A DNA stretch of 32,000 nt from Methanosphaera stadtmanae DSM 3091 (GCF_000012545.1 NC_007681.1:1260001-1292000), one strand, 5' to 3'. Positions 1 to 31,008 are shown, counted from the first letter of the stretch. Made by a program: numbers and translations. The notes: generated from the letters alone by a model not told the origin.

Positions 1-2
1 AA

Positions 3-125
3 GAAACCACACCATTAGATACCAAACCTGAAGAGATTCAAAGTAGTGGTTCTGGATACCAGGAAAGAGGTAAAGTATACCAAGACCCAAGTACTGGAAA
101 ACTAGTTCTGGTTAAATCATCATGA
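3..125 (+). CDS. 3' end of an unidentified CDS truncated by the window edge
   Basis: Frame 3 is open from base 3 (ETTPLDTKPEEIQSSGSGYQERGKVYQDPSTGKLVLVKSS) to TGA at 123-125. It is less AT-rich than the spacer that follows. No family recognised. Confidence 0.35.
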   Translation, partial: ETTPLDTKPEEIQSSGSGYQERGKVYQDPSTGKLVLVKSS

Positions 126-947
126 AAAGAAAATACTATTTTTTGGATATGAATAGGACTTTCCTATTCAATATTTTTATATTATAAATAGATGATGAAA
201 TATTAAGTGTATATGTTATTTTTAAGAATAAATTTATTTTATAGAGGATTGATTAAAATGAAAGAGAGTAAATTAAGAACTTCAAAGAAAATTAATAGAA
301 ATTCTAATTATTTTACTAAAGAAAAACAAATAATAAGTATCATACTAAAATTATTGATAATATTTGTTTTAATTACAATTACAATAAATCTTATTAATTA
401 TATAAATATTTTACTAAACTAGAAAAATACTGTAATTTGTATAATAACATATATATTAAATAGTTACTTTTTCAAAAAATAATAAAACTTAGTTTAATAA
501 TGAACAATGACTTAAATAATCTCCAAAAACTTAAAATAAATATACTTATTTTATAATATTTTTATTAATTATTTAAAGTAAATGATACTTTAATACAAAG
601 TATCATACAACCTTCAAGATATTTTTCAAATATTGACTTATCCTTATATAAACCACCAAAATAAACAATAAAATTAGAAAAATAGGTTTTTTTAACAAAC
701 ACCTGACATAAACTAAAGAAAATAAAAAATAGTTTTAAAAAATATACAACACTCATAATAAATAGAATTTATTCTTATTTTTTTAAAAATAACAAAGTAA
801 AACAATAAAATAAAGTAAAATTTATATTAAATTTATAAAAGTTAAATAGTTTAGTGAATAAATATATCAATTATCATGAATTATCTTGATATGAAAAAAT
901 TATCTTAAATTAAGATATTTGTGAAAAGTAACAATAAAGGTGAAAAA

Positions 948-3900
948 ATGAAGACCATAAATAAATTTCTATTGGCAACAATAGTTTTATTAATGGTTGG
1001 CTTAGGTTGTGCAGCTGCTGCAGATAGTTCAAGTAATTCAACTATAGCAACTGTACATGAAACTTCAAGCCTAAGTGGTGATATCCAAAGTAGTTCAATA
1101 GAACCTACTTTAACAAAGGATATTCAAACAACTAATAAAGATAATATAAAAGAAAAAACTTCAGATAGTAGTACCAAAAGTATTCAAACAAAGGATACGC
1201 AAAAGAAAACTACATCTAACAGTTTTTCAAAAGATGTAACAAATAAAAATACACAAGTATCTAAAAATGTAGAAAAAGATACTAAAATCATAGAAACAAC
1301 GAAAAAAGAATCTAATACACAACCAACAAAAACAGTGAAAAAAGCAACAGTTACAACAATAACTCCCGATGACTATGATTTATATTTCAGATATAATCCT
1401 AAAACTAATAAAACAGAATCTACAACACTTGTATCTGCAGGAGATGTGTTAGATTTACAGGGAACATTTAAAAATGTTAACTTCACAATAGATAAATCTA
1501 AAATAACAATAACAAGTATTGGTAAAACTGCAAAGTTATACAACTGTACAGTAAATGTTTTAGGACTTCAAAGTGCAGGTTCATCTGTACATAACCTAAC
1601 AATTACTAATAACAACTATTATGGTAGTGGAATCTACTTAAATGTTACAAAAAATATTCTTGTAGCTAACAACACCATACATGTATGGGGACCATTTGCA
1701 TTTGCTCTACCATGTGATAGAGTAAATAATAGTTTAGTTATTGATAATTATCTTGAAACATCATGCCGTGAAGATACAAATCGTACACACACAGCAACAC
1801 CATGGGGATTATCCTACTATAACAACATAGTAAACAACACCGTAGTAAGTGACCAAGCAAATGGTATTTACTTCAGTTTATGGGGATCAGGATTATTCCA
1901 AGGAGGATACTGTGATTACAACAATGTAACAGGTAATGATGTTACAGGAGGAGATACTTCCTGGAGTTACACCATACAAATTATGGGTACAGGTAACATC
2001 ATATCCTACAACAATGTTAGAGGTGGATATAGAGGAATATCTACACAAGACTTTACAAACAACACCATTATATTCAATGAAGTAAATGGTACAGCACAAG
2101 GTATTTTTGCTTGTGAAGGAGCTATAGTAGCTAACAACACTGTACATGTAAATGGTACAACTACTGGTGTTGAAGTTGGTGGAGATGGAGCAATTATTGA
2201 AAATAACACTATAACATCCAATTCTGGATCAGCTCTTGTAATTAGTGCAAGTAATATTAATATTAAGAACAATTACTTATGGTCCACATTAGGTTATGGT
2301 ATATACTCAAAAGGTAAATACATTAACCTCAACATTTCAGACAACACCATTATCAGTGGAAAAATAGGAATTCTCTTTAGAAAACAATCCTCAAGTAAAA
2401 AAATAAACTATGTAAACGTGACTAAAAATGTAATTAAATCAGATGGCGAATATGCTATTGACTTTAGTGAAGCTGGAGCAAGAAATGAAGTAGATGTACA
2501 CATACTCGTTTCAGAATCAAATGTATTGACTTCAAAAGCAGGAACTGGTCTTGAAAAAGCATATCTTCCACCTTCAGTAGGAGGAGGAGACGACCTACCT
2601 GACTCTAATAAAACATACACAGTAACAGATAGTACTTATTACACATACTTCACAGATGAACAATCAATAAACACGAAAAAAGTACTTAAAAATGATACTA
2701 TTATATTAAAAGGTGAATTTAAAAATAAAAACTTCACATTTACACAAAAAACCCATGTTATTGGAGATAATTGTATAATACGTAATGGTACAATAACATT
2801 CACAGGTGATGCTTCTGCATCTACATTAAAAAATGTTAAAATCATAAACTATGATAAAAATAGTTTAAATAGACATGGAGTTGAGGTTATTGATGTAAAC
2901 AACGTTGTAATAAACAATGTAAATATTAATAACTATGATCCATGGGAAAGCTTTGGTATATTCATATGTTCATCAAATGGTAATACACTTACAAACAATG
3001 TAATTTACACCTCTGGTGACTATGTAAATTATGGAATATTTGTTTATGCATCAGACTTAAATAATTTAAGTAAAAACCGCGTAACACTAAATCAAAGTAG
3101 TAAACCTATAGAGTATGCTGATGAAATAATGTTCAATGATAGAATAGGACTTATTAAAGAAGTACTTCATAACTATGGAATAATTCTTATGTATTCATCA
3201 TACAACACAGTAGATCAAAACATTGTAAATGGTACATCACAATTTAAAACATACCAATTCCCAGTAGAAGAATGTAAAAACAGTATTGTGGGAATTGATG
3301 TATACTATGATAGTAATTACAATACAATTACAAGAAACAACGTTACAATAAACAGTTATGGACCATATGAATATGGAATGGGAGTATTAGGAGCACCATG
3401 GGGAACAGCAATCTCTACATTAAATGCTACAAATAACACATTTGCACATAACAATGTACGTGTAAATGGTGGATACTTTGCTACAGGTTTCATTGCTGGT
3501 CTTAACAGTATAAACACAACCATATATAACAATACATTTGATGTACATGCCCTACATAACAGTACACAAAAAGGTGATTATACATATGGTTTAACACTTG
3601 AAAGTTGTACTAATACCACATTTATAAATAACACAATAAATGCTTCAGCTGCATCATTATACACTGTAGAATTATTTGGTACTAAAAAAAATATTATAAC
3701 AAATAATTACTTCTATGGAGAAGCAACAAATCCATATGGAATTGCAGGATATCAATCTAGTGATAATACAATAACAAACAACACCATAATTATGAGACAA
3801 TTTAATTATGGACCAACCAGTTCTGCTCTACATGCTGATGTTATACCATATGGTAAAGAAGGTATAATGTTAATGAAAGACAGTTACAGAAACAAAATAA

Positions 3901-6713
3901 TGTACAATACAATCAATACCAATGCTACAGAATATGCAGTAAAACTAACAGAACAAGCAATTAACACAACTGTCAAAGAAAATTCAATAATATCTTCAAA
4001 ATATCATGGAGATGATGCTGTATCTAATGGACATAAAACAAATATTGTATCAAATAACTTCAAATACTTCACAAATATAACAGCATATCCATCAACAGGT
4101 ACAGTTGGATATCCTATTACAATTAAAGCAAAAGTAACTTCAACTACAAGTGATGTTTCAAATTTAACAGTAACATTTAGAATTGGATTAACACAACTTG
4201 GTAGTGCTAAAGTTAACAATGGAATTGCACAAATTACTGTAAATTCAACTAGTTTCCTTAAACCTACTATATATACCTTGATTGCAACTGTTGGTGGAAC
4301 TAACTTCCAAAATGCAACTTCCACATCCCAATTATCCTTAAACAAAACAATGTCATCAAGTACAGTTACTGTTTCAAAAGTTAATGGATTAATAGGATCT
4401 AAGGTAAATATGGATGTAGATGTAACTGATTCCAATGGTGCTAAGTTAGAAGGAAATGTTACATTTAAACTTGAAAATACTGTATTATCCACTATGAAAC
4501 TCACTCTTGGAAGAGCAACATACACCTACACCATACCTGCAAATGCAAAAAGTGGTGTATATACAATTACAGTATTATATAGTGGAGATGAAAACCATAA
4601 TGCCGGTGTTGGAACTAATACTTTAGGTATTCAAACAAAAACAATTGCAACAGTAAGTAGTGTTAATGGTAAAATTGGAAATCCAACAAAATTCACTGCA
4701 AAATTAACATCAAATGGTGTTCCATTAACTAATGGAAAAGTAACATTCCTTGTAGATAACGTTGTTGCTGGTACAAGTAATATAAACAAAGGTGTAGCTA
4801 CATATAACTATGTTGTACCTACAAACTTCACTGCTAAAAATTATACTATAACAGTAAAATACGATGGAAATGATACATTAACATCTGCTAGTGCAAGTAA
4901 TAAATTAGTTGTAACCAAATCAATAAGTAAAATAACATATACTCCAGTAGCAGTTGTTGTTAGTGATGATGTTGTTTTAACAGTGAAAGTAACTAATAGA
5001 ACTAATGGACTTGTTGCAAAAAGTGGAAGAGTAAGTATTAAACTTAATAATAATTACTTAAAATATAGTAATGGTTCCATAATATATGGAAATGTAAATA
5101 AAGAAGGTAATGCTATATTTACATTCACAGCACCAGCACAGTACAGTGGTTTAAATAATATTACATTCTACTATGAAGGTAATGATCAATTCCTTGCAAG
5201 TTCACAAAAATATACCAATGGATTTATTGTAAGAAATCCTTCAAAAATCACAGTAAGAGAATCTGCAGGTAAAATAGGTAATACTGCAACACTTAAAGCA
5301 ATAGTAACAGATGATAGAAACATGGGTATAGCAAAAGGACAAGTAACCTTTAAAATAAATAATCAAGTTATAAAAACAGTGAATATTGACAAAGGAATTG
5401 CAACAATAAAATACAACATACCTACAACATTTAAAGCAGGAACTTATAAGATATCTGCTGTTTATAACTTCAATAAAATATCCATACAAAATACAAGTAA
5501 ACTTACTGTACAAAAAGTGATAAGTAAAATATCATACACCCCTACAACTCAAGTTGTTGGTGATAAAGCTATTTTAAAAATCAAAGTAACAAATAGAACT
5601 AATGGATTCACTGCTAAAAATGGAAACATATCCATTATGATTAACAAGGAAACATTAAGAAATAGTGATAACAGTGTAAAAATTGCAAAAGTAGGTGCAG
5701 ATGGTTATGCTACATATGTATTTACTATTCCTAAGAAATTTATTGGAGTAAATAACATTACAATTAAATATTCTGGTGATGATCAATTCCTTGCAAGTCA
5801 AACAACTATTAAAAACGGATTTATTGTAAGAAATCCTTCAAAAATCACAGTAAGAGAATCTGCAGGTAAAATAGGTAATACTGCAACACTTAAAGCAATA
5901 GTAACAGATGATAGAAACATGGGTATAGCAAAAGGACAAGTAACCTTTAAAATAAATAATCAAGTTATAAAAACAGTGAATATTGACAAAGGAATTGCAA
6001 CAATAAAATACAACATACCTACAACATTTAAAGCAGGAACTTATAAGATATCTGCTGTTTATAACTTCAATAAAATATCCATACAAAATACAAGTAAACT
6101 TACTGTACAAAAAGTGATAAGTAAAATATCATACACCCCTACAACTCAAGTTGTTGGTGATAAAGCTATTTTAAAAATCAAAGTAACAAATAGAACTAAT
6201 GGATTCACTGCTAAAAATGGAAACATATCCATTATGATTAACAAGGAAACATTAAGAAATAGTGATAACAGTGTAAAAATTGCAAAAGTAGGTGCAGATG
6301 GTTATGCTACATATGTATTTACTATTCCTAAGAAATTTATTGGAGTAAATAACATTACAATTAAATATTCTGGTGATGATCAATTCCTTGCAAGTCAAAC
6401 AACTATTAAAAACGGTTTTATTGTAAGAAATCCTTCAAAAGTTGTTGTAAGAAACGCTGTTGGTAAAGTAGGTTCTACTGTAACATTAAATGCTACAGTA
6501 ATAGATGATAAAAAAATAGTTATACTTAAAGGACAAGTAACTTTCAAAGTAAACAATCAAATTGTAAAAACAGTTAATATAACAAATGGAACAGCAACCA
6601 CACCATACACTATTCCAAAAACTTTTAATACAGGAAACTATACAATAAATGCAGTTTACACACTTAACAGTATAAAATTAGAAAATAATGGAACTCTCAC
6701 CGTTAAAACATGA
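948..6713 (+). CDS. Giant secreted Asn/Thr-rich adhesin-like protein (two parallel beta-helix blocks plus a C-terminal array of about 9 Ig-like domains)
   Basis: The ORF is open from 921, but ATG 948 is preceded by GGTGA (939-943) and yields a signal peptide, MKTINKFLLATIVLLMVGLGCAAAAD. This is followed by an S/T/K-rich linker. The beta-helix region shows periodic NNT(I/V)/NN(Y/F) coils typical of PbH1-type right-handed beta-helices. From about residue 1040 there are repeated domains of about 95-100 aa with the pattern G..V.L.A.V....G..V..G.V.F.(V/I)N......V..G.A...Y.IP.....G.Y.I...Y. Confidence 0.88.
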   Translation: MKTINKFLLATIVLLMVGLGCAAAADSSSNSTIATVHETSSLSGDIQSSSIEPTLTKDIQTTNKDNIKEKTSDSSTKSIQTKDTQKKTTSNSFSKDVTNKNTQVSKNVEKDTKIIETTKKESNTQPTKTVKKATVTTITPDDYDLYFRYNPKTNKTESTTLVSAGDVLDLQGTFKNVNFTIDKSKITITSIGKTAKLYNCTVNVLGLQSAGSSVHNLTITNNNYYGSGIYLNVTKNILVANNTIHVWGPFAFALPCDRVNNSLVIDNYLETSCREDTNRTHTATPWGLSYYNNIVNNTVVSDQANGIYFSLWGSGLFQGGYCDYNNVTGNDVTGGDTSWSYTIQIMGTGNIISYNNVRGGYRGISTQDFTNNTIIFNEVNGTAQGIFACEGAIVANNTVHVNGTTTGVEVGGDGAIIENNTITSNSGSALVISASNINIKNNYLWSTLGYGIYSKGKYINLNISDNTIISGKIGILFRKQSSSKKINYVNVTKNVIKSDGEYAIDFSEAGARNEVDVHILVSESNVLTSKAGTGLEKAYLPPSVGGGDDLPDSNKTYTVTDSTYYTYFTDEQSINTKKVLKNDTIILKGEFKNKNFTFTQKTHVIGDNCIIRNGTITFTGDASASTLKNVKIINYDKNSLNRHGVEVIDVNNVVINNVNINNYDPWESFGIFICSSNGNTLTNNVIYTSGDYVNYGIFVYASDLNNLSKNRVTLNQSSKPIEYADEIMFNDRIGLIKEVLHNYGIILMYSSYNTVDQNIVNGTSQFKTYQFPVEECKNSIVGIDVYYDSNYNTITRNNVTINSYGPYEYGMGVLGAPWGTAISTLNATNNTFAHNNVRVNGGYFATGFIAGLNSINTTIYNNTFDVHALHNSTQKGDYTYGLTLESCTNTTFINNTINASAASLYTVELFGTKKNIITNNYFYGEATNPYGIAGYQSSDNTITNNTIIMRQFNYGPTSSALHADVIPYGKEGIMLMKDSYRNKIMYNTINTNATEYAVKLTEQAINTTVKENSIISSKYHGDDAVSNGHKTNIVSNNFKYFTNITAYPSTGTVGYPITIKAKVTSTTSDVSNLTVTFRIGLTQLGSAKVNNGIAQITVNSTSFLKPTIYTLIATVGGTNFQNATSTSQLSLNKTMSSSTVTVSKVNGLIGSKVNMDVDVTDSNGAKLEGNVTFKLENTVLSTMKLTLGRATYTYTIPANAKSGVYTITVLYSGDENHNAGVGTNTLGIQTKTIATVSSVNGKIGNPTKFTAKLTSNGVPLTNGKVTFLVDNVVAGTSNINKGVATYNYVVPTNFTAKNYTITVKYDGNDTLTSASASNKLVVTKSISKITYTPVAVVVSDDVVLTVKVTNRTNGLVAKSGRVSIKLNNNYLKYSNGSIIYGNVNKEGNAIFTFTAPAQYSGLNNITFYYEGNDQFLASSQKYTNGFIVRNPSKITVRESAGKIGNTATLKAIVTDDRNMGIAKGQVTFKINNQVIKTVNIDKGIATIKYNIPTTFKAGTYKISAVYNFNKISIQNTSKLTVQKVISKISYTPTTQVVGDKAILKIKVTNRTNGFTAKNGNISIMINKETLRNSDNSVKIAKVGADGYATYVFTIPKKFIGVNNITIKYSGDDQFLASQTTIKNGFIVRNPSKITVRESAGKIGNTATLKAIVTDDRNMGIAKGQVTFKINNQVIKTVNIDKGIATIKYNIPTTFKAGTYKISAVYNFNKISIQNTSKLTVQKVISKISYTPTTQVVGDKAILKIKVTNRTNGFTAKNGNISIMINKETLRNSDNSVKIAKVGADGYATYVFTIPKKFIGVNNITIKYSGDDQFLASQTTIKNGFIVRNPSKVVVRNAVGKVGSTVTLNATVIDDKKIVILKGQVTFKVNNQIVKTVNITNGTATTPYTIPKTFNTGNYTINAVYTLNSIKLENNGTLTVKT
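5220..6439 (+). repeat. Perfect in-frame tandem duplication, 597-bp unit (199 aa, two Ig-like domains), about 2.04 copies
   Basis: Bases 5220-5816 and 5817-6413 read identically base for base by eye. The identical antisense ORFs at 5241-5513 and 5838-6110 in the ORF track confirm the 597-bp offset. The junction sequence GGATTTATTGTAAGAAATCCTTCAAAA occurs at 5220 and 5817, and with one mismatch at 6414. Diverged copies of the two domains flank the array. Confidence 0.95.
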
Positions 6714-6961: not shown

Positions 6962-9523
6962 ATGTATAATAAAAGAATTTGCATTCTTTTAGTAACTACA
7001 TTTATCATATTACTTGCAGGATTCACTGCTATTTCTGCAGCAGATGTAAATGATACTTCTGTAGATACTAGCTCCCTATCATCTACTACACAAGTAGACA
7101 AAAGCCCTGTTTTAACTACTGTGGCTGATAATGATAATAATATCAAAACAGATAGGGATGATGCAATAAAAACTCAACTAAAAACTACTAAAAAAGTAGA
7201 TACAGAATCTTATGTTACTACTAAAGACTCTACAAAAACAAAAAATACAAACAAAACTATTAAAACAGAAAACCCAACAATAACAGTAACAGATGGAAAT
7301 TATGGAAAATACTTTGATGATGATGGAACACGTAACATCAACCCCAATACCACAGTAATTTTAAATGGTGCATTCTACAATAAAACATTCATAATTGATC
7401 AGGAATTTATCACTTTAACAGGAAACAATGCAACATTACACAATGGACATATATATGTTACAGATATGGCAAGTAATTCCACAATTTCTAACCTAGTTAT
7501 TAATAGTACTGGTATGGAAAATGTTATTAACAACGAAGCATGGGATATTACAATAAAAAACAATAAAATTACACTTACAAATAGTGAAGGTATTACAGAA
7601 GGTATTACAAATAATGGAGATAATGTACTTATTGTAAATAACACTGTTGATGTATATGGTCCAGCTAAGGATATAGACTGGACTGGTGGACCCAGAGAAG
7701 GATTAGCTCTAACCTTTGCAATATTCAATGATGGTGGAAATAATGTTATAATTGAAAATAACACTGCAAGAAGTGGAAGATCAAAAGATGGTGAAGATAA
7801 CCCCTTTGGAACCATTGATGGTATTGAATTAAAAAGTGGAAATAATGTAACAGTATCAAACAACTACATAGAAGTAAGTGGAGCAAGATTTGTATATGGA
7901 CTTAATGCTTTATCTGAAGTTTATAATGTAGTTCTATCAAATAATACTATTAATGTTACAAGTGAAAGATATATTGCTGGTATACAAATAGGTAACTCTG
8001 CAAGAAATTGTAGTATTTTAGATAATAAAATCTATGGTGTATGTTACAATACAACAATATTCACACAAGATAATGAAGCACTTGCATTTGGTATTATCAC
8101 AACAAGTATGGGTGGAAGTGAATCTAGAAATATGACTGTAGCAGGAAATATAATGAATTTAAATGCTACAATTGTATATGGTATGGAAATTTATACAACA
8201 TATGATACTATCATTGATAAAAACTTAGTTAATGCTATAGGAAATTATAGTATGGGTATGAGTTTAGCTCATTCTCCAAATTCAATAGTAACTAACAATG
8301 TATTTAATACTACAGGAAATAGTAATATTCCTATTAATCCTATTGTAGAAGAAATTGCACCTGCAAATACAGGTATCCAAATACAACAAAATTCTACAAA
8401 TGCATACATAGCAAACAATATTGTTATAACTACAGATGCTGGTAACAATGCCAAAGCAGTGAATATTGAAACTACAAACAATGTAGCAATTATTAATAAC
8501 ACATTATTTGCTAATGGTAAAACTGGTGATGATGCTGTAAATGCATCTAGTAACCTAATAAATATTACAGTAAATGATAATCATGGACCTATTACCAAAT
8601 ATGATGCAATGGTTATATTAAATATTCCAAAAACAATTTCTACAGGAAGTACTTTAAATTTAAATTTCACTGTAAAAGATAAAGAAACTGAAAAATTAAT
8701 TAATGGTAAAGCTATAGTTAAAATCAATGGTGTAACATTAAAAGATGATGATGGTGAAATAATCAAACTTAATGTTGTAAATGGTATTGCTAATTTATCA
8801 TATATATTAAAAGGTTATAGTGCTAAAGAAGCAAAAGTAACTATAGTCTTTGCTAACAGCACATATAATAGAGCTGAAAGTACTGGTATGTTAAATATTA
8901 CTAAAACCAATGTTAAACTCGAAAGCAAAGATATGACAGTTTATACTGGTGAAACAATAACAATTAACCAAACATTATTTGATTCAAATAATAATCCAAT
9001 TTATGGAAATACAACTGTAGCAGTAAAAATTAATGGTGTAACTGTTAAAAATACTAAAATTGTTAATGGAAATTTATTAGTTAATATTACTGTTCCTTCA
9101 ATTAAAGCAGGAAAAAATGTTTTAACAATTATTCTTGGAGAAAATAATAGATATAATTCTGTTTCAGTAAATAGTACACTTACTGTTCTCAAACAAGATC
9201 CTGTAATTAAAATTGAAAAAATAACTGCAAAACCTGGAGAATATGTAACATTAAAAGCAACAATTGTTTCAAATGTTACTAAAACACCAGTTACTTCTGG
9301 TAATTATGTATTTAAAATTAATGGTATGACTGTTAATAATACTGATGAATATACCTTTGAACAAGTAACTGTTCAAAATATTACAAATGGAATTGCAACA
9401 CTTAGTACATATATGGATATTTCAGCTAATGATGGAGTCTATAATGTAACTGTTGTATATTCAGGTAATAATCATATTAACTCAGGAAGAAGTACTGAAA
9501 GTTGTTTAATAATAAAAGCTTAA
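6962..9523 (+). CDS. Secreted Asn/Thr-rich adhesin-like protein (beta-helix block plus about 3 C-terminal Ig-like domains)
   Basis: AGGAG at 6948-6952 precedes ATG 6962. The signal peptide ends in AISAADV. The module ITVTDGNYGKYFDDDG is followed by NN(T/V)-periodic beta-helix coils. The C-terminal repeats resemble those of the first adhesin. Confidence 0.88.
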   Translation: MYNKRICILLVTTFIILLAGFTAISAADVNDTSVDTSSLSSTTQVDKSPVLTTVADNDNNIKTDRDDAIKTQLKTTKKVDTESYVTTKDSTKTKNTNKTIKTENPTITVTDGNYGKYFDDDGTRNINPNTTVILNGAFYNKTFIIDQEFITLTGNNATLHNGHIYVTDMASNSTISNLVINSTGMENVINNEAWDITIKNNKITLTNSEGITEGITNNGDNVLIVNNTVDVYGPAKDIDWTGGPREGLALTFAIFNDGGNNVIIENNTARSGRSKDGEDNPFGTIDGIELKSGNNVTVSNNYIEVSGARFVYGLNALSEVYNVVLSNNTINVTSERYIAGIQIGNSARNCSILDNKIYGVCYNTTIFTQDNEALAFGIITTSMGGSESRNMTVAGNIMNLNATIVYGMEIYTTYDTIIDKNLVNAIGNYSMGMSLAHSPNSIVTNNVFNTTGNSNIPINPIVEEIAPANTGIQIQQNSTNAYIANNIVITTDAGNNAKAVNIETTNNVAIINNTLFANGKTGDDAVNASSNLINITVNDNHGPITKYDAMVILNIPKTISTGSTLNLNFTVKDKETEKLINGKAIVKINGVTLKDDDGEIIKLNVVNGIANLSYILKGYSAKEAKVTIVFANSTYNRAESTGMLNITKTNVKLESKDMTVYTGETITINQTLFDSNNNPIYGNTTVAVKINGVTVKNTKIVNGNLLVNITVPSIKAGKNVLTIILGENNRYNSVSVNSTLTVLKQDPVIKIEKITAKPGEYVTLKATIVSNVTKTPVTSGNYVFKINGMTVNNTDEYTFEQVTVQNITNGIATLSTYMDISANDGVYNVTVVYSGNNHINSGRSTESCLIIKA

Positions 9524-9550: not shown

Positions 9551-9755
9551 AAAAAAAATAAATAAAACCTTAAACTTATTTTATAATCCTCAAAATACCA
9601 TAGAACTTTTTTTTAAATTTAAAAAAAACCAAAATTATATAAAGAATATAATACTAATTACTATTAGTGTATTCTTATTCAATATTTTTGAACTAAATTA
9701 ATGATTTTTTTAAGAATTGTTGAATACACTAACAAAAAAAAGAGAGTAATATGTG

Positions 9756-12700
9756 ATGAAAATTAAGACCTTTTCATTATGTATGATATTCTTAGTTCTC
9801 TTAGTATGTACAACAGTGCCAGCAAGTGAATCTACAGATATACCAGTACATCAGAGTTCAATTTCAACATATGAAATTCATGAATTAACAAGTAACATGT
9901 CAACAAGTAACATATCAACAAGTAACATATCCAGTTCATCCAGTATTAAAACAGTAAAAGAGAGTTCACAACAAACAAGTGTAAAGATAACAACAAATAA
10001 AAAATCAGATACAAATCAAGTAACTACTAGTAATAATGTGGCAAAAAAAACTACTTCTTCAAAAGCAAGTACTACCCAAAGTAGTACAAAAGCAAGTAGT
10101 AAAGCAAAAGCAAGTACTACTAAAAATAATTCAGTACAAGAAGTTAGTTTAAACACTACACAACCATCAATAAAAGAGGCAGAAACAATAAAGCAGTTAT
10201 CTGCAACAAAAAATATGTCCTCACTAAAACAATTAACATCATTAAAGCAAGCTCAAAACAAGTATAACTTAGAAGGTAAAGTAACTTGTGTTTACAATAA
10301 ATCTTCTGATAGTTATGTTGGTGATGAAGAGGATGCTTTAGGTGTTGGAGGTGCTGTGATAACAGTAACTAATAAAAGTAAAGTTATTGCAAAGGTTACA
10401 TCAGACTCTAATGGAAACTATGTTATAAAAAACTTAGCTCCAGGACTTTATACAGTTAAATTTAAGTATGGAACCTATGCAGTAGGTGAAGAGGATATAC
10501 GTATAATTAACACCACAGAACGGTTTAATTATGTGTTTATACCTGATCTTGCTATTATCACATACTCTGGAAGTACTAATGATGGTCAAAGAAATAAATT
10601 TGACGCATTAAGAAAACTTAGTGATAGATTTTATTTCCTAGAAAGCTATAATCTAAATAGTTCATACGATGTATCTCATCAATGGATGTTAGATTATGCA
10701 AACTTTATTCTAGTAGATATGTATAGTAAAGGACAGGGATTTGGAGTAGATATAGATGCTATTAAAAATTCACCTGCTTCACAACACAACAGAGTTGCAT
10801 ATACTTTTGGTATATTTGATCAAATGTTATTACAAGAACTAGGTTGGGGATTCCTTGGAGTTAATCCTGTTGAATCCATAGAAAATACCTATGTTGGATC
10901 ATATTGGCAAGCTGAAGCTATAAAAGATGCTACAGTAGTTAATACCAATATGAAAAACTTGTATCATTATATATTATATTTACTTGGAGAAAGTGACTAC
11001 AACCCAACTAGAACAGATAGTGGAACACCTGTTTTAGCTGGACCACAATGGGGTGTTTATTACCCAGGATATAAAATGTCTGTTCCTACTCCAAGCAATA
11101 AATTGATAAATAAATGGATACAACAAGCACCAGGTTATAACAATGATGGAGCTGGAAGTCTAAATTGGATGACAGAATATTATAATCCATGGATTCTAGA
11201 AAATCAGAAACCTGTGAATGTATTCAGAAAATTTGAGAATTGGTACAATAAACATGTAAATATTAAAGGATCATTTGTTGTTATAATAAGTTATTATCAG
11301 ACAACAACAGAAGTTGAAGCTTTAATTAAAGAATTTGAAAGACAAGGAAGAGCAGCATTTTGTTTATATCAATATGCTACCACACATCCTACTATGACCG
11401 AACTATTAGAAACAGCAGTTACTGATAGAAAAGGTTTCTCAAGAGGAATTGTTGCTGGAAGTTCTTTATATTCATGGTCAACTTCATATACTCAAATGGG
11501 AACAAATACAACTATAAATGCATATAAAAACATGAATATTACAATTTTGAATGCTTTAAGTGGAATAAGTGAATACAGTTATCATAGTCAATATGGTCCT
11601 CAAAATGAATGGACATATAAGGTAACAATATCCCAATTTGAAGGAATAATAGGTGCCCTACCTATTTCATACATTTCAAATACAACTAAATCAACTGTTA
11701 TGATTGACAGTGGTGTTAAAAAACACGTTGAATTAGTTAATGGTTGGGCTAAACTTAAAGAAACTCAAAATTCCAAGAAGAAAATAGCTATTGTACTATA
11801 TGACTATCCACCAGGTAAAGCTAATATTGGTGCATCTTATTTAGATGTATTTACCAGTACACATGATTTACTTGAACAATTAGCCGATGCTGGTTATGAT
11901 ATTGGAATGAAGAAAAGTGAAATTCCTACAACAGAGGAGTTAACTACAATGATTTTCAATATTGGTAACAAAGGTAATTGGGCTTCAGGATATCTTAAAT
12001 CATATGTAAAAGATAACTATGATGAACTTGTCAAAAATCATCAGCTAATCAGTAAATCTGAATTCCAATTAATGTTCAATCAATTACCTACAAATTTACA
12101 ACAACAACTTGTAAACTCATGGGGTAAAGGATTAGGTAATGGATCTATGATCTATAATAACAGTTACCTAGTAATTCCTGGATTGTACTTTGGAAATGTG
12201 TTTATTACTGTTCAACCTGCAAGGGGTTGGGAATCAGTAACAGACTATCATAGTCCTGATTTAGCACCACCACAACAATATGTGGCATTTTACAAGTATC
12301 TTACTAGTTATTATCTGGGAAAAGAAAATAACAGTGTGGATGCAATGATAAGTATGGGAACACACGGAACACTTGAATGGTTACCTGGACGTACTTTAGG
12401 ACTCCAAGAATCAGATTGGCCATTCCAATTAATCAAAACACCGATTATTTACCCATATATTGTATCTAACCCTGGGGAAGGTATGACTGCTAAAGAAAGA
12501 AGTTTTGCACAGGTAATTACACACATGACACCTGTAACTACTGCATCAACACTTTATGGTGAATATTCTAAATTAAGTGAAGCTATATCAGATTACACAG
12601 CTAATAAAAAATTAGGTGATGCAAGCAATATGGCTTACTATAAAGAATTAATATTAAACCTTACAAGTGTAAATAGTTCATTTTCAGCACCAACATTTAC

Positions 12701-15491
12701 AAAGATGAGCCAATACATTGATGAATATAACTATGCAGTTTCAGTAAATGATACTGCATTAATAAATGAAAAAAGAGCAGCTATACTTAGCTTATCTGCA
12801 TCATTAAATAAACCAATGGAAAACTACTTCAATCATACATCTGCAAAAAATATGACTTTTGATGAGTATATAAAAAGAATGTATGAATATGTAAATAGTG
12901 ATGAAGCTTTCGATGCATGGCTAGAAACTATACATGCTGTTATTGAAGGATTAAGTTCTGATACAATAACATATGGTGTTCATAAAATTGGTTATGTATG
13001 GAACAGTACTGAAATGATCGATGGAATAAGTGTTATTGGTGCTTCAAGAACCAATATCATGCAAAACATCATGAATCTTTACTTTAATATCAATGGAAGT
13101 TATTATGAAAAAGTACAAGACCGTGACTTCAAACCTTATCAAACAGCAATTGAAGCAACACTTAACAACATTGTAACAAGCTTAGTATTAGATACCACAC
13201 TTGAAAATGTTGAAAAAATAGCTAAAGAAAAAAATCAAGATAAAAACAGTAGTTTCTATCAAGATCTTTATGATATTATGAATCTTATTAATAGTGTAAG
13301 AGACAATCATGAATGGGAAGCTATTATGACAGCTCTTGGTGGCGGATACGTTGCTCCTGGTCTTTCAGGAGAACCTGCAGCAAGTGATGTTCTACCAACA
13401 GGACGTTCAATGTATAACAGTGATACAACTAAAATGCCATCTAAAGCTGCATGGTCATCAGCAGTAAACTCTATTAATCAAATATTAGTTAAATATATGA
13501 AAGATCTTGGAGAAGATACCTATCCAGAATTAGTTGCAGAAGTTATATGGGGTACAGAAGTACTTCGTACAGAAGGTATAAGTCTTGCACAATACCTATA
13601 CTTACTTGGAGTAAAACCTACATGGGATAGAACAGGTAAAGTAAATGGTACTGAAGTTATACCTCTTGATGAACTTACAATAACTATTGATGGAACAGTA
13701 TATCAACGTCCAAGAATAGATGTTTTTGCTACAATTGTATCAAACAACCCATACTGGCTAAGTTTATTAACAAGTGCAGTAGATCAGGTAAATGCTTTAA
13801 ATGAAAGTTTTGAAGATAACTATGTTAAAAAACATTATGCTAAATTCCCAAGTACATTCAGATTATTTGGACTTAATGGAAACAAATTAGAAGGTACCGG
13901 AGTTTCAGATAGAATAAATAACATTGGTAATTTAACCCAGTCATCAAAAAGTGTGCAGGAAGAAATAGCTAGTGTATATGAATCTAGACTTAACAATGCA
14001 TGGACTGTTGATGCTAATGGTAATATTGTTGTTAAAACAAATCAGACAGAATTATTTGTATGGTTATTATCCAACGTAAATCTAATAATCCAAGATTTAG
14101 ATAGTACATGGAGATATCTTGATTCAGATGATTATACTGATTGGTTTGGTGGTCTTCTAAATTCAGCAAACATACATGGTGCAACACCAAGTACAATGCT
14201 TCTTGATATACGTAACAGAAACAATATAGTTTCAAATACATTATCCCAAGAAGTAAGTAAAGAAATAAGAACTACCTTAATAAATCCAAAATGGTTACAA
14301 GGTATGACATCTTCTGTTGGTGGATGGAACCAAATGGCTGCTAACTGGGAAAACCTACATAAAACAATATTCACAACACAAGGTTATCTTGAAGATGAAA
14401 ATGGTAAAGCTATTTTACAAACTAACAAAGGAAACAACACAGGTGCAGTTAGTAATGAATTATATACTCAAGCAGTGAAAAATCTTGTAACTAGTGAATA
14501 TTTAGTTGTAGATGCTGATTATAAGTCTTATGCTATGCAATCCATGATTGGTTGGTCCTTAACATTATTAAAAGATGGTTATTGGAAAACAACCGATAAA
14601 AAATTAGTATACGATCTTGTAAAAACATATACACGTATTGTAGTAAAATACGGTGTTGCATGTTGTCACCACACATGTGGTAACATAGAATTTAATAAAT
14701 GGATTATTAAAACTGGAACTGCAATGGGTATTGATATGGCAGGTTATGCTAATGAAATGAATGCTGCAACAGAACAAGGACTTACTACTGGTCAAGGTAG
14801 TGGTAGTGGTGATGGAACTGGTTCTGGAAGTAGTGGTGGAACATCTAGTGATGGTGGAGATGGAGGAACTGCAATAGGTTCCGATTCTTTCAAAGATGGA
14901 GCAGATACTGGAAGTGTAGGTGGAATTGGATCATACACTGGAACAGGATCTTCTCAGTCAACAACTGGTAATGCTAATGGTGAACTTGCAGGAGTAGCTT
15001 CTAACGACAATGGTGCAAATTCTGGTAATGGAACAAACAATAACAACAATGGAAACAACACTGGAAATCAAGACACTAATGGTACAAATACAGGTTCTAA
15101 TTCCACTTCCAACAATAATGGTAATGCTGATGGTAATTCCAACAGTACTGGAAGCGGTGATAGTACAGGTAATGCAGATTCAGGTAATGCTGATGGTGCA
15201 TCTACTGGAAATAGTACTCAAAAAAATAGTGGAAGTTCTGATGTTGGTACATCAAGTACTGGTGCATCCTCTGCAGGATCAGCAGCAGCAAGTAGTTCCT
15301 CAGCAGCAAGTAGTTCCTCAGCAGCTGTTGCTGCAACTGCAACTGCAACTGCTTACGAAGTAAGTGAGAAAAGTGGAGGAAAAGCTGCTTCAAATAAATC
15401 AGCTGTTTCATTCGGTTATCTTGTAGCTATTGTTTTAATAGCACTTCTTTTCTTTGTTGGATTCAAAAGAAAAGATATTCGTGGAGATTAA
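9756..15491 (+). CDS. CobN/ChlH (Mg/Co-chelatase large subunit) family protein with signal peptide, CarboxypepD_reg-like domain, low-complexity stalk and C-terminal TM anchor
   Basis: The ORF is open from GTG 9753; ATG is at 9756. The N-terminus MKIKTFSLCMIFLVLLVCTTVPASES looks like a signal peptide, followed by an S/T-rich linker. A beta-sandwich-like segment follows: GKVTCVY...GGAVITVTNKSKVIAKVTSDSNGNYVIKNLAPGLYTVKFKYG. CobN/ChlH hallmark motifs are present: SMGTHGTLEWLPG, LGGGYVAPGLSGEPAASDVLPTGRSMYNSD, and VIWGTEVLRTEGISLAQYLYLLGVKP...RPRIDVF. Bases 14790-15353 encode a G/S/N/T/D-rich tract. Bases 15405-15464 encode the helix VSFGYLVAIVLIALLFFVGF, followed by KRKDIRGD and the stop. Confidence 0.88.
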   Translation: MKIKTFSLCMIFLVLLVCTTVPASESTDIPVHQSSISTYEIHELTSNMSTSNISTSNISSSSSIKTVKESSQQTSVKITTNKKSDTNQVTTSNNVAKKTTSSKASTTQSSTKASSKAKASTTKNNSVQEVSLNTTQPSIKEAETIKQLSATKNMSSLKQLTSLKQAQNKYNLEGKVTCVYNKSSDSYVGDEEDALGVGGAVITVTNKSKVIAKVTSDSNGNYVIKNLAPGLYTVKFKYGTYAVGEEDIRIINTTERFNYVFIPDLAIITYSGSTNDGQRNKFDALRKLSDRFYFLESYNLNSSYDVSHQWMLDYANFILVDMYSKGQGFGVDIDAIKNSPASQHNRVAYTFGIFDQMLLQELGWGFLGVNPVESIENTYVGSYWQAEAIKDATVVNTNMKNLYHYILYLLGESDYNPTRTDSGTPVLAGPQWGVYYPGYKMSVPTPSNKLINKWIQQAPGYNNDGAGSLNWMTEYYNPWILENQKPVNVFRKFENWYNKHVNIKGSFVVIISYYQTTTEVEALIKEFERQGRAAFCLYQYATTHPTMTELLETAVTDRKGFSRGIVAGSSLYSWSTSYTQMGTNTTINAYKNMNITILNALSGISEYSYHSQYGPQNEWTYKVTISQFEGIIGALPISYISNTTKSTVMIDSGVKKHVELVNGWAKLKETQNSKKKIAIVLYDYPPGKANIGASYLDVFTSTHDLLEQLADAGYDIGMKKSEIPTTEELTTMIFNIGNKGNWASGYLKSYVKDNYDELVKNHQLISKSEFQLMFNQLPTNLQQQLVNSWGKGLGNGSMIYNNSYLVIPGLYFGNVFITVQPARGWESVTDYHSPDLAPPQQYVAFYKYLTSYYLGKENNSVDAMISMGTHGTLEWLPGRTLGLQESDWPFQLIKTPIIYPYIVSNPGEGMTAKERSFAQVITHMTPVTTASTLYGEYSKLSEAISDYTANKKLGDASNMAYYKELILNLTSVNSSFSAPTFTKMSQYIDEYNYAVSVNDTALINEKRAAILSLSASLNKPMENYFNHTSAKNMTFDEYIKRMYEYVNSDEAFDAWLETIHAVIEGLSSDTITYGVHKIGYVWNSTEMIDGISVIGASRTNIMQNIMNLYFNINGSYYEKVQDRDFKPYQTAIEATLNNIVTSLVLDTTLENVEKIAKEKNQDKNSSFYQDLYDIMNLINSVRDNHEWEAIMTALGGGYVAPGLSGEPAASDVLPTGRSMYNSDTTKMPSKAAWSSAVNSINQILVKYMKDLGEDTYPELVAEVIWGTEVLRTEGISLAQYLYLLGVKPTWDRTGKVNGTEVIPLDELTITIDGTVYQRPRIDVFATIVSNNPYWLSLLTSAVDQVNALNESFEDNYVKKHYAKFPSTFRLFGLNGNKLEGTGVSDRINNIGNLTQSSKSVQEEIASVYESRLNNAWTVDANGNIVVKTNQTELFVWLLSNVNLIIQDLDSTWRYLDSDDYTDWFGGLLNSANIHGATPSTMLLDIRNRNNIVSNTLSQEVSKEIRTTLINPKWLQGMTSSVGGWNQMAANWENLHKTIFTTQGYLEDENGKAILQTNKGNNTGAVSNELYTQAVKNLVTSEYLVVDADYKSYAMQSMIGWSLTLLKDGYWKTTDKKLVYDLVKTYTRIVVKYGVACCHHTCGNIEFNKWIIKTGTAMGIDMAGYANEMNAATEQGLTTGQGSGSGDGTGSGSSGGTSSDGGDGGTAIGSDSFKDGADTGSVGGIGSYTGTGSSQSTTGNANGELAGVASNDNGANSGNGTNNNNNGNNTGNQDTNGTNTGSNSTSNNNGNADGNSNSTGSGDSTGNADSGNADGASTGNSTQKNSGSSDVGTSSTGASSAGSAAASSSSAASSSSAAVAATATATAYEVSEKSGGKAASNKSAVSFGYLVAIVLIALLFFVGFKRKDIRGD
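9888..9932 (+). repeat. In-frame 15-bp tandem repeat x3 (TSN[M/I]S) in the CobN-like N-terminal linker
   Basis: The three consecutive units are acaagtaacatgtca, acaagtaacatatca and acaagtaacatatcc. Confidence 0.9.
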
Positions 15492-15796: not shown

Positions 15797-16402
15797 TTAT
15801 TCTAATTGATATTTTTCTTTGTTACGTTGGAATATTTCTTTAAACCATGTGTATGCAATTACTAATAATATTAATGTACATATCCCACGTGATGCATCAT
15901 AGAATATACTTGCTGTATATGTACTTATTATAGAAGGTACTGAAATTGGTACAAAATAAAACCATGATATGTTTGTAATCCAACCATATATGAATCCCCA
16001 TAATAAACCAAAAACTGCTCTAAATGGAAGACTTTCCATTTTATTAGCAAATAAACCAGAAGTATATCCCAGTAGACCAAATCCAATCATTTGATATGGA
16101 GTCCATGTTCCAATACCTGCACCAGAAATTAGTCCAAATACTATTATAGATAAGGCCCCTACCAAGAATCCACTTTCTTTTCCAAAGACCACTCCAGCCA
16201 TTATAACAATAAAGAAAACTAGATCTATATGTAATATTGAACCTATAAAGTTTGCAACTACTGCTATAGCAATTAATATTGCTAACATAACAATATATTC
16301 TACAGAAGGTTTTGATTTTTCAAACATTCTGAATATTACACCTATAAATCCAACTGCCACCAATAATGAAATTATTAATGTTAATATATTCATAAGCTCC
16401 AT
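15797..16402 (-). CDS. Polytopic membrane protein, probable substrate-specific (S) component of an ECF transporter; substrate unknown
   Basis: 201 aa with about 6 hydrophobic helices by eye, which is the S-component size class. Its start overlaps the upstream ATPase gene by 13 nt (16390-16402). It is the last gene of the T-A/A'-S operon. Confidence 0.6.
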   Translation of the reverse strand: MELMNILTLIISLLVAVGFIGVIFRMFEKSKPSVEYIVMLAILIAIAVVANFIGSILHIDLVFFIVIMAGVVFGKESGFLVGALSIIVFGLISGAGIGTWTPYQMIGFGLLGYTSGLFANKMESLPFRAVFGLLWGFIYGWITNISWFYFVPISVPSIISTYTASIFYDASRGICTLILLVIAYTWFKEIFQRNKEKYQLE

Positions 16403-18105: not shown

Positions 18106-18956
18106 ATTTCAATAATTATAAATGGTAATAACAGTACAACATATGCAAAGTAATATATGTTAAATGGTGTTTGACTAAATGTAAATGTGAATTTTGGATA
18201 AATCATGATTGATCCAACACCATTATATAATCCATACACAGATATTGTTGCTGTTACTAATATAAGTACTGTAAGAAGTACGTCAATTTTATTAAAGTCA
18301 TATCTAAGATAACTTGTTCTTTTTGTTATATTATATCCTCTAGATTTCATTGATGATGCAGATTGCATAGCTTCTTCTAATGACCATGAAACTACCAATC
18401 CTAAATTTTGAATTAATTCTGATGTTTTTTCTGTAAATTTCAAGTCTTCATTTCTATTTTTTAATTTTGACAGTTCAAGAAGTTCGTTACTTCTTTTTTG
18501 TATCAATGGAACAAATCGCAGAGACATTATTATTATCATAGATAAGTTAGGATACTTTTTTGAAAATACATAAAGCATATCCTGATATGATACATAAGTG
18601 TTGTATGCTATAAATGTTAATGTAACTAAAAAGAAAGTTACAGCCATAATTACACCATATACTAATGCTTCAAAGGTTACATAATATGATCCAAAGATAT
18701 AAATATGTGTATCTCCAACATGTGTAAAAATAGTGTTTAATAAGGTAATAAAAAGTATTACTGGTAAAAATACCTTAGTAGTACTTTTAATTTCACTTAT
18801 TGATCCTTGTAATGCAATTAAGGTTAGTATTAATATCCCATAGGTTATTACATAATATGGATTATTAAATAAAAATGCAAATATTATCAGAATCAGAAAA
18901 TACACTATAAAAATTGCTGGATGAATTCGTGTAATCTTCATTTTCTTTCTATCCAA
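18078..18956 (-). CDS. ECF transporter transmembrane (T) component, CbiQ/EcfT family
   Basis: 292 aa, multi-TM, with the EcfT-like coupling motif region EEAMQSASSMKSRGYN (A-x-x-x-R-G). TTG start at 18956; an alternative ATG (MKITRIH) lies 5 codons in. The gene overlaps the ATPase gene by 28 nt. Confidence 0.8.
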   Translation of the reverse strand: MDRKKMKITRIHPAIFIVYFLILIIFAFLFNNPYYVITYGILILTLIALQGSISEIKSTTKVFLPVILFITLLNTIFTHVGDTHIYIFGSYYVTFEALVYGVIMAVTFFLVTLTFIAYNTYVSYQDMLYVFSKKYPNLSMIIIMSLRFVPLIQKRSNELLELSKLKNRNEDLKFTEKTSELIQNLGLVVSWSLEEAMQSASSMKSRGYNITKRTSYLRYDFNKIDVLLTVLILVTATISVYGLYNGVGSIMIYPKFTFTFSQTPFNIYYFAYVVLLLPFIIIEIWERILWHS

Positions 18957-31005: not shown

Positions 31006-31008
31006 ATT

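Follow-up and report, generated by a model that had tools for sequence, protein, structure and literature searches.

A 32,000-nucleotide stretch of the Methanosphaera stadtmanae DSM 3091 genome (GCF_000012545.1 NC_007681.1:1260001-1292000), here called the window, contains a long gene whose product, which we term the CobN-like protein, is related to the class I chelatase subunits CobN and ChlH and to the heme-processing protein HmuS. A first-pass annotation, made from the sequence alone, had placed the open reading frame (ORF) at 9753..15491 on the plus strand and had described the product as a CobN/ChlH homolog laid out like a cell-surface protein. The ORF is real, and it is far beyond chance because it spans 1,912 codons at ~28% GC (the value of the window) and because 356 homologs at E<=1e-10 were found among the candidates scored. 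Its start is more likely ATG 9756 than GTG 9753, which immediately precedes it (MKIKTFSLCMIFLVLLVCTTVPASES...; MKIKTF...), giving a protein of 1,911 aa. The public gene call of the identical protein begins 16 codons downstream (P0001, 1,895 aa). Every element of the proposed layout is present in the translation, from the signal-like N-terminal segment, S/T linker, and CarboxypepD_reg domain, through a CobN body with the family motifs THGTLEWLPG, GGYVAPG...LPTGRSMYNSD, and RPRIDVF, to a single C-terminal transmembrane helix followed by KRKDIRGD. The features of the gene are listed below, with conservation counted in a 28-sequence alignment of family members.

9753..15491, plus strand: CobN/ChlH/HmuS-superfamily gene with a predicted exported, C-terminally anchored product, 1,911 aa from ATG 9756 (ORF, Pfam, NCBIfam, PDB, and homolog searches)
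9756..9833, plus strand: predicted signal peptide, aa 1-26, with MKIK, a hydrophobic core, and VPA/SES at the cleavage site (heuristic; same n/h/c layout in homologs)
9834..10310, plus strand: S/T/K-rich linker, aa 27-185, with 7 N-x-S/T sequons (composition)
10311..10535, plus strand: CarboxypepD_reg-like beta-sandwich, aa ~186-260 (Pfam PF13620)
10536..14750, plus strand: class I chelatase body, aa ~261-1665, with head, neck, and domains III-VI (Pfam, hhalign, AF2 model)
12357..12377, plus strand: active-site motif GTHGTLE, aa 868-874, invariant in 28/28
12468..12482, plus strand: NPGEG loop, aa 905-909, with E908 (CobN E593, HmuS E577) in 28/28
14118..14135, plus strand: LDSDDY motif, aa 1455-1460, with D1459 in 28/28 and D1458 in 24/28
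14661..14678, plus strand: CCHHTC, aa 1636-1641, of a C-x4-C-x-N module, with C1636, C1637, H1638, H1639, and T1640 in 28/28 and C1641 in 26/28
14751..15395, plus strand: low-complexity G/S/N/A/T/D stalk, aa 1666-1880, terminating in a conserved "AYEV..K" (composition)
15411..15488, plus strand: C-terminal transmembrane helix, aa ~1886-1903 (G1902 invariant), and basic tail KRKDIRGD, predicted to be cytoplasmic (translation, homologs)

The Pfam domain CobN-Mg_chel (PF02514) covers ~1,140 residues of the protein (aa 397-1535, profile positions 10-1028 of 1090) at E=3.1e-178, scoring 595 bits against a cut-off of 24.5. PF13620 matches aa 193-250 (E=6.2e-8, 33.3 bits vs. a cut-off of 32.3), and the domain is precomputed in most homologs. 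The linker consists of 22% S and 16% T, and its DNA holds a 15-bp tandem repeat in three copies (9887-9931). A stalk of about 190 aa had been described; the stalk is indeed of low complexity, but it is 215 aa long (G 21%, S 21%, N 14%, A 13%, and T 12%), and E1868 toward its end is almost invariant in the family alignment. From this layout the CobN-like protein is predicted to be an exported, C-terminally anchored member of the class I chelatase (CobN/ChlH/HmuS) superfamily, and its body very probably sits outside the cell. The first-pass annotation had reasoned that an uncleaved N-terminal segment with N-in/C-in topology would leave the body in the cytoplasm. That logic fails, because two membrane segments with both ends inside leave the body outside the membrane.

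The layout is a family trait. In a search of 5.8 billion proteins, the 120 best homologs (1,500-2,170 residues) were 38-100% identical across the whole body, and all named sources among them were Methanosphaera, Methanobacterium, or Methanobrevibacter (Methanobacteriales). Both ends were kept in nearly all of these 120, the exceptions being visibly truncated gene calls. At the N terminus, a basic stretch leads into a hydrophobic core, and position −1 is taken by a small residue (typically ...SA/ED or ...TA/SD); in these signal peptides Ala fills −1, and −3 is small or aliphatic. At the C terminus, the hydrophobic helix closes with G-Y/F, after which come basic and, in many cases, acidic residues. 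When 1.84 billion representatives were scanned in full with HMMER, 2,902 matches came back, with the family proper forming 8 clusters above 650 bits and the next match at 398 bits. Scanning one genome per GTDB species yielded 80 loci, which together with the window make 81 sources, and 79 of the 80 were titled Methanobacteriales. The sole exception (L065, CAJOOI010000130.1) is a contig of a metagenome-assembled genome labeled "Acholeplasmatales bacterium"; it shows the typical rumen Methanobrevibacter order, a CobN-like gene followed by two adhesin-like genes, and is most likely mis-binned.

Some family members depart from the usual arrangement. Two CobN-like copies adjoin each other in one locus (L006; 1,538 and 1,542 aa), and in another (L035) the pair of CobN-like and beta-helix genes is repeated twice. 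A 3,293-residue member from an uncultured Methanobacterium (P0361, WP_319372959.1) has the query-matched region in its C-terminal third, with >1,800 extra N-terminal residues, and retains the signal peptide, CCHHTCAN, and anchor. A Methanobrevibacter ortholog appears to be expressed: a 1,624-aa CobN-domain protein (a M. smithii-group database entry) is listed, with what seem to be 42 peptides, in a proteomics table covering vesicles and lysates of gut archaea, although the meaning of that figure and the fraction it belongs to are uncertain.

The public name of the identical protein, "cobaltochelatase subunit CobN [Methanosphaera sp.]", would make it an ordinary cytoplasmic CobN for B12 synthesis, or else a nickel chelatase for coenzyme F430. 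Database names throughout read this way, the best NCBIfam matches are CobN models, and cfbC lies 15 kb away. Its product is the NifH-like component of an F430 synthesis enzyme, the Ni-sirohydrochlorin a,c-diamide reductive cyclase (426 bits vs. a cut-off of 402). However, all nine NCBIfam CobN/BchH equivalog models score far below their cut-offs (for example, 397 vs. 1619, 391 vs. 822, and 366 vs. 829 bits), the protein reaching only a quarter to half of each. By these scores it is not a canonical cobaltochelatase, as had been supposed from the first, and the database name is a similarity transfer. CfbA serves nickel insertion in Methanobacteriales, which counts against a cytoplasmic nickel chelatase. 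These organisms also use the anaerobic B12 pathway with CbiX (PMC3087415), and the predicted signal peptide and C-terminal anchor are conserved. Topology and scores together effectively exclude a cytoplasmic CobN.

Canonical CobN (9uk9, 7c6o) and ChlH/BchH (4zhj, 6ysg) cooperate with AAA+/VWA partners and consume ATP. Of the gene clusters that recur within ±10 kb at the 81 loci, none of the AAA+ or VWA type (CobS/CobT or ChlI/ChlD) was co-conserved, a further point against the cytoplasmic role and one in line with the first-pass annotation; Methanothermobacter has been reported to carry ChlI/D-like genes elsewhere in its genome. The earlier statement that the window holds no partner gene is true of AAA+ partners, but it overlooked the tail of an HmuV-type DUF2149 gene at positions 1..125, described below. 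The canonical subunits share with the CobN-like protein the CobN-Mg_chel domain over its ~1,140 residues and the LDSDDY motif type. They differ in being soluble, cytoplasmic proteins of ~1,200-1,350 aa that have no signal peptide, anchor, or Cys module, and the CobN-like protein stands apart from them both in equivalog score and in the tree below.

To compare the wider superfamily, we scanned its top 150 representatives for terminal hydrophobic segments and motifs and placed 136 of them in a rough, midpoint-rooted neighbor-joining tree. The 54 representatives with neither signal nor anchor formed one clade. The 82 with a signal and/or anchor, the CobN-like family included, fell outside it, which again argues against a cytoplasmic CobN. 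A C-x4-C-x-N module occurs in 72/82 exported representatives, whereas a C-terminal Cys segment was found in 0/54 cytoplasmic ones; the module is therefore a residue signature setting the exported members apart from their cytoplasmic relatives. Its variants are CCHHTCxN (archaea and one Bacillota protein), CC(D/E)HTCNN, and CSGFVCDN (HmuS). In the CobN-like protein the full module reads CCHHTCGN (aa 1636-1643), and the CCHHTC part, which holds 3 of the only 4 Cys in the 1,405-aa body, is a candidate metal or redox site. Judged by these terminal segments and motifs, exported, anchored chelatase homologs make up a large, mostly uncharacterized class of which the CobN-like protein is one branch.

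Exported groups also share short motifs ahead of the C-terminal helix. These include "NPTFSA(S)" before the helix with "YGFRRK" after it, "SSSG" with "RRR", and, in Methanobrevibacter, "SSMP" with "VGYxRNK". The pattern resembles sortase- or archaeosortase-type sorting signals, and if such a signal were processed, the protein would be lipid- or wall-attached instead of helix-anchored.

The active site is retained in the exported family. The invariant columns of the 28-sequence alignment include G868-T-H870-G-T-x-E874-x-L-P-G, P906-G-E908, and D1456-S-x-D1459-Y-x-D-W-x-G-G. H870 aligns with CobN H554 and HmuS H538, and D1458 aligns with CobN D1100 and HmuS D1208, D1459 standing at the position of HmuS H1209. 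E874 we take to be ChlH E660, a pairing that comes from our own numbering of the ChlH motif and not from an alignment. The central-cavity metal-site set (the GxHG His, the Glu four residues on, the PGEG Glu, and the LDSDD Asp) is thus kept, and all the metal-site residues noted for CobN (H554, E593, and D1100) and ChlH (E660) have conserved counterparts. In a preprint on the CobN holoenzyme, two Co2+ ions sit at H554, E593, and D1100 (10.64898/2026.07.21.739949), and catalysis by HmuS involves H538 with E577, D1208, and H1209 (PMC12583661). The first-pass annotation had named loss of the tetrapyrrole-cavity residues as a sign against tetrapyrrole binding; H870, E874, E908, and D1459 are all invariant (28/28), and because all mapped catalytic residues are conserved, the cavity is not degenerate.

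Among solved structures, the best match by sequence was HmuS of Bacteroides thetaiotaomicron (9d26, E=1e-69), with CobN (9uk9, 7c6o) and ChlH (4zhj) close behind; only the HmuS alignment spans the C-terminal part of the body, and hhalign against it gave a probability of 100% (E=8e-66). Structural comparison agreed. In a Foldseek search of the PDB with an AF2 model of aa 655-1665 (8-sequence alignment, pLDDT 69.5, pTM 0.48), HmuS came first (E=7.5e-34), followed by CobN and ChlH, and the top 20 matches were all HmuS, CobN, or ChlH (E 7.5e-34 to 1.5e-17). The global template modeling (TM) score was only ~0.35 with this mediocre model, and domains V-VI alone scored 0.81-0.84 on C-terminal fragments of ChlH and CobN.

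HmuS is the most informative relative. Helices at its N and C termini fix it in the membrane, and it converts heme to protoporphyrin IX and Fe(II) without ATP (PMC12583661). For the Porphyromonas gingivalis protein, a signal peptide and periplasmic exposure have been reported, and its body probably faces the periplasm (PMC13227078). In Bacteroidota, the hmu genes form a heme utilization operon induced under iron limitation, in which hmuS is followed by genes for HmuT (a hypothetical membrane protein), HmuU (MotA/TolQ/ExbB), and HmuV (DUF2149), an order that we confirmed on a Bacteroides contig. HmuS (BT_0494/0495, PG1553; PDB 9d26, 9p4s; hmuYRSTUV) and the CobN-like protein share the superfamily and a six-domain body, an N-terminal signal or anchor and a C-terminal transmembrane helix with a basic tail, and, where the body draws to its close, a C-x4-C-x-N module (CSGFVCDN vs. 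CCHHTCGN). They also share the superfamily His/Glu pair (H538/E577 vs. H870/E908), and HmuS has no AAA+ partner, just as none was co-conserved within ±10 kb of the CobN-like gene. The likeness had been called a conceptual parallel; it is stronger than that, given the best solved match by sequence and fold, the same terminal membrane segments, and a linkage to HmuU/HmuV-type genes.

This linkage concerns a membrane trio. We clustered the ORFs of the 80 loci and the window and annotated the recurrent clusters, among which genes for DUF2162 (235 aa), MotA/ExbB (220 aa), and DUF2149 (110 aa) proteins, in that order and on the same strand as the CobN-like gene, occur in 11/80 loci from Methanobacterium, several Methanobrevibacter lineages, and one M. 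stadtmanae. The trio directly follows the CobN-like gene in nine of these loci, and a beta-helix gene stands between them in L011 and L077. In M. stadtmanae SIG25 (L014), the trio lies upstream of a beta-helix gene that precedes the CobN-like gene, and the order in the window is identical:

1..125, plus strand: 3' end of a DUF2149/HmuV-type gene, last ~40 codons and stop, ending ...SSGSGYQERGKVYQDPSTGKLVLVKSS (tblastn; gene order as in L014)

The DUF2149 proteins of L011, L026, L077, and L014 matched window positions 15-122 by tblastn (E down to 1.4e-9), the end reading ...GKVYQDPSTGKLVLVKSS before the stop. The only public contig with the identical CobN-like protein is 19.3 kb long and breaks off within the first beta-helix gene.

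Over its full length, the Methanosphaera MotA/ExbB protein shares 33% identity with B. thetaiotaomicron HmuU (E=2e-28), and the DUF2149 protein is 26% identical to HmuV, both matching PF09919. An Asp at the start of the single hydrophobic, probably membrane-spanning segment of DUF2149 is invariant in 12/12 sequences, HmuV included, and we take it to occupy the position of the proton-binding Asp of ExbD (D25), TolR, and MotB. In pairing a MotA/ExbB protein (PF01618) with a small single-pass partner bearing an invariant Asp, the unit resembles the ExbB-ExbD, TolQ-TolR, and MotA-MotB motors. It differs from them in that DUF2149 is not detectably ExbD (PF02472, E=0.98) and in that no TonB, outer membrane, or flagellar rotor is present. 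DUF2162, which Pfam annotates only as a "predicted transporter", has an invariant APCPCCF within a hydrophobic segment that probably spans the membrane (L014:1251-1949 and 11 other loci), a motif reminiscent of the CPx motifs of heavy-metal P-type ATPases. A DUF2162 profile search aimed at Bacteroidota members listed 120 matches, all from Methanobacteriales. HmuT was considered as its counterpart, being of the same length (233 aa) and operon position in B. thetaiotaomicron; hhalign gave a probability of 0.2% and HmuT has no Pfam match, so the equation was rejected.

Two side observations touch these genes. In M. woesei, a pair of cfbC and U32 peptidase genes (L083:5280-7331), followed by a ferritin gene, lies ~2.7 kb upstream of the free-standing trio; cfbC also adjoins a U32 peptidase gene in the window (30217-31941, minus strand), and the arrangement looks like a remnant of shared gene order. 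The TonB-dependent receptor HmuR of Bacteroides (L081:3687-5828) begins with a CarboxypepD_reg domain, the same domain type as at the N terminus of the archaeal CobN-like proteins, which could be coincidence or a shared interaction module.

The steadiest neighbors of the CobN-like gene are genes for large secreted proteins. The first-pass annotation had set it directly after two secreted adhesin-like genes, and both bear this out, having signal peptides and beta-helix, NosD, or Big_3_5 domains:

921..6713, plus strand: giant secreted NosD-like beta-helix protein with 9 Big_3_5 repeats, signal peptide, and no anchor, probable start ATG 948 (Pfam)
6962..9523, plus strand: second secreted beta-helix/Ig-like protein, 853 aa, with signal peptide and no anchor (weak Beta_helix match)

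The first matches Big_3_5 (1.9e-57), Beta_helix (3e-21), and NosD (7e-8), and its homologs (cluster 1) occur in 52/81 sources. The second resembles, by tblastn, the cluster-19 proteins that flank the CobN-like gene in other Methanosphaera. Each of the 39 loci flanked by 3 kb or more on either side encodes a large secreted protein on the same strand within two genes of the CobN-like gene, and in every lineage looked at, the flanking secreted proteins examined were NosD-like right-handed beta-helices with Ig-like domains (Big_3_5, Big_5, PKD). The order in Methanobacterium, two beta-helix genes, the CobN-like gene, the trio, and two more secreted proteins, is compact and operon-like. The beta-helix neighbors have signal peptides but no membrane anchor and end in Ig-like domains, so the CobN-like protein is the anchored member of the group. 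The idea that this C-terminal anchor is a sorting device common to the surface proteins of the locus found no support, as the neighboring beta-helix proteins lack such a helix. In ~40 rumen Methanobrevibacter loci, a divergent gene for a secreted DUF1002 protein (~282 aa) lies immediately upstream of the CobN-like gene (for example, L029:8001-8849, minus strand).

This company could mean that the CobN-like protein is itself an adhesin-like or structural wall protein, its chelatase fold recruited as a scaffold or acting on a non-tetrapyrrole target, and its link to the beta-helix proteins reflecting a part in attachment. Its constant place beside large secreted beta-helix/Ig-like proteins, its CarboxypepD_reg domain, and its long, glycosylation-prone linker and stalk would all suit such a role, and the M. 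ruminantium counterpart has been grouped with adhesin-like proteins as a vaccine target (PMC2812497). Yet invariant catalytic residues and cavity-lining motifs are unexpected in a scaffold, the HmuU/HmuV-type genes linked to it belong in Bacteroidota to an iron-limitation-induced heme operon, and it is the only anchored protein of these clusters. We consider such a role improbable.

The best explanation of the whole, to which we give a probability of roughly 55%, is that the CobN-like protein processes metal-tetrapyrroles at the cell surface without ATP and passes the product to a membrane unit. A Sec-type N-terminal signal would take the ~1,400-residue body across the cytoplasmic membrane, where the C-terminal helix and basic tail would hold it while the disordered stalk of ~215 residues reaches into or through the pseudomurein wall. 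An environmental metal-tetrapyrrole, possibly captured or presented by the beta-helix proteins, would be bound in the central cavity with no AAA+ motor, and its metal would be removed or exchanged, as HmuS does with heme. Heme, a corrinoid, and a Ni-tetrapyrrole are candidate substrates. The CCHHTC cluster may act as the metal hand-off or redox site, and the metal or macrocycle would be handed to the membrane unit for uptake. There, DUF2162 with its thiol-rich motif may carry a soft metal ion across the membrane, and the MotA/ExbB-DUF2149 pair may harness the proton gradient for the process or for uptake. That the protein performs metal-tetrapyrrole chemistry is likely. Dechelation, as opposed to binding or insertion, is suggested by analogy with HmuS and falls somewhat short of an even bet.

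Much of the same evidence could also describe a non-catalytic surface receptor, whose cavity binds an environmental tetrapyrrole, for example the corrinoids that these methanogens require for their Mtr or Mta methyltransferases, and hands the intact molecule to a transporter in the manner of the Bacteroides surface B12-binding proteins. An exported, tetrapyrrole-binding fold linked to a transporter-like membrane unit is what a receptor would need; the B. fragilis HmuS homolog is also named BtuS2, and the authors of the P. gingivalis study consider a heme-chaperone or transfer role possible for HmuS (PMC13227078). However, the invariance of H870, E874, E908, and D1459 across genera that are ~40% identical goes beyond the needs of pure binding. 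In the window, no cobalamin riboswitch or other Rfam element turned up that would point to B12, though such elements are rare in archaea, and the neighboring energy-coupling factor (ECF) transporter is not co-conserved. A receptor without chemistry therefore seems to us unlikely.

Several findings weigh against surface metal-tetrapyrrole processing as we have drawn it. The topology was called from hydropathy, the −3/−1 rule, and the positive-inside rule, which are heuristic, and the AF2 model is mediocre, with low confidence in the active-site loops; it is good enough to assign the fold but too poor to judge the geometry of the cavity. Only 11/80 loci have the trio next to the CobN-like gene; in M. 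woesei it stands alone elsewhere in the genome, and the window shows just 40 codons of it. HmuS needs NADH-derived electrons, and how these would reach a protein on the outer side of an archaeal membrane is not apparent. The kinetic inertness of cobalt and nickel tetrapyrroles makes easy dechelation of corrinoids or F430 less plausible. The CobN-like protein also lacks the Met-rich domain IV insertion of HmuS (at most 6 Met per 120 aa and 2.3% overall, vs. 11 in the C-terminal part of the B. thetaiotaomicron protein), and no HmuT homolog accompanies it, since DUF2162, which fills the place of HmuT, shows no detectable homology to it. Finally, it has LDSDDYTDWFGG where HmuS has LSLDHxxEFMGG (His-1209, Glu-1212), Asp being invariant at the His-1209 site.

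Further comparisons with HmuS concern the head and the context. The heads of the two proteins could not be aligned by hhalign (for the HmuS head with its Met-79/His-254 heme site, the probability was 5% over 41 columns), and no conserved His was seen at the neck heme site; an invariant D321-M322 after a beta-strand might match HmuS Met-79, and the neck, which has no invariant His, conserves YSWS. The archaeon has no outer membrane, HmuY hemophore, or TonB-dependent receptor HmuR. The CarboxypepD_reg domain, S/T linker, long stalk, and secreted NosD-like beta-helix partners are extra to the archaeal system.

Because LDSDDY and its H/E/D ligands are of the CobN/ChlH (insertion) type and not of the HmuS type, the protein could run forward, as an extracellular chelatase that loads a scarce metal (Ni, Co, or Fe) onto a tetrapyrrole, either free or secreted, which would serve as a metal-capturing shuttle and then be imported. 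The MotA/ExbB-DUF2149 pair could in that case supply the energy that AAA+ partners give in the cytoplasm. Still, 16/54 cytoplasmic and 11/82 exported representatives have His at position 1459; since both states are found in both forms, the motif is no guide to direction, and we dropped Asp vs. His as a marker of it. The only characterized exported member, HmuS, runs in the dechelation direction, and we know of no secreted tetrapyrrole metallophore in methanogens. Forward insertion thus appears to be a poor candidate.

A bolder version of surface metal-tetrapyrrole processing is that the CobN-like protein, DUF2162, MotA/ExbB-DUF2149, and the secreted NosD-like proteins form a surface machine powered by the proton gradient, in which an ExbB/ExbD-like motor would replace the AAA+ ATPase and drive metal extraction from, or insertion into, scavenged tetrapyrroles as well as uptake of the product. 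We hold this doubtful. If it were true, HmuU and HmuV of Bacteroidota would serve HmuS and inner-membrane transport and not the energizing of HmuR, as currently drawn, because Methanobacteriales have neither an outer membrane nor a TonB-dependent receptor.

Convergent to the CobN-like gene lies the ECF transporter (15797-18956, minus strand), with a CbiQ-like T component, a fused double ATPase, and an S component that matched no named family (weak FolT-family match, E=0.0015) and no solved structure. It was rejected as a functional partner, being convergent and clustering with no gene in the 80 other loci. A search for cobalamin or other riboswitches and Rfam elements in the window found only one tRNA gene:

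29102-29185, plus strand: tRNA-Leu (GAG)

A 54-codon ORF (258-422, plus strand), located in AT-rich DNA that separates the DUF2149 end from the first beta-helix gene, encodes a basic N terminus and one hydrophobic helix (MKESKLRTSKKINRNSNYFTKEKQIISIILKLLIIFVLITITINLINYINILLN). A third giant secreted adhesin-like protein is encoded at 20917-26607 on the minus strand (1,896 aa, 17% Asn, 73 N-x-S/T sequons). Its gene has a strong local strand skew at 23-24 kb (GC skew 0.44, AT skew −0.51), where Tandem Repeats Finder reported no array at a score of at least 80. It is flanked by nucleotide-sugar genes at 19263-20213 (minus strand) and 27266-28126 (plus strand), namely an NAD-dependent epimerase/dehydratase (GDP_Man_Dehyd and Epimerase in Pfam, RmlB-like by our own reading) and an RmlD-like reductase (RmlD_sub_bind).

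The surface layout has been noticed before. In 2010, mru2047 of M. ruminantium M1, annotated as "magnesium chelatase subunit H, BchH" and described as having a transmembrane helix at either terminus, was taken for a surface protein in peptide-vaccine work, and it adjoins the adhesin-like mru2048 and mru2049, all three being among the predicted surface proteins (PMC2812497). It is probably an ortholog of the CobN-like protein; rumen Methanobrevibacter loci show the same order, a CobN-like gene and then two adhesin-like genes. The Methanosphaera linker and stalk are much longer, and the beta-helix genes lie upstream instead of downstream. That paper proposed no function, family analysis, or link to HmuS or HmuU/HmuV, and archaeal HmuS homologs were flagged as unexplained by the authors of the HmuS structure in 2025 (PMC12583661). 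The reading given in the first-pass annotation is broadly upheld. The novelty that it implied is lower, in that the layout was noticed earlier and a characterized relative with the same layout exists. The HmuU/HmuV-type linkage is reported in neither paper, and the term DUF2162 was absent from our literature search results. What is new here is a partial Hmu-like gene module in an organism that lacks an outer membrane, the constant beta-helix partners, and the residue signature of the exported class.

The role of CobN/ChlH homologs in methanogens is an acknowledged open question, B12 and F430 being made with small class II chelatases. Our analysis places one large family of these archaeal homologs, by prediction, outside the cell and ties it to HmuU/HmuV-type genes, a putative thiol-lined membrane protein, and beta-helix proteins. 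The archaeal locus offers an outer-membrane-free setting for testing what HmuU and HmuV energize. As an exposed, conserved protein, the CobN-like protein is also a target for methane-mitigation vaccines, for which its M. ruminantium counterpart has already been tried. If it does harvest metal from heme, corrinoids, or Ni-tetrapyrroles, this would bear on how the dominant methanogens of the human and ruminant gut acquire iron, cobalt, or nickel.

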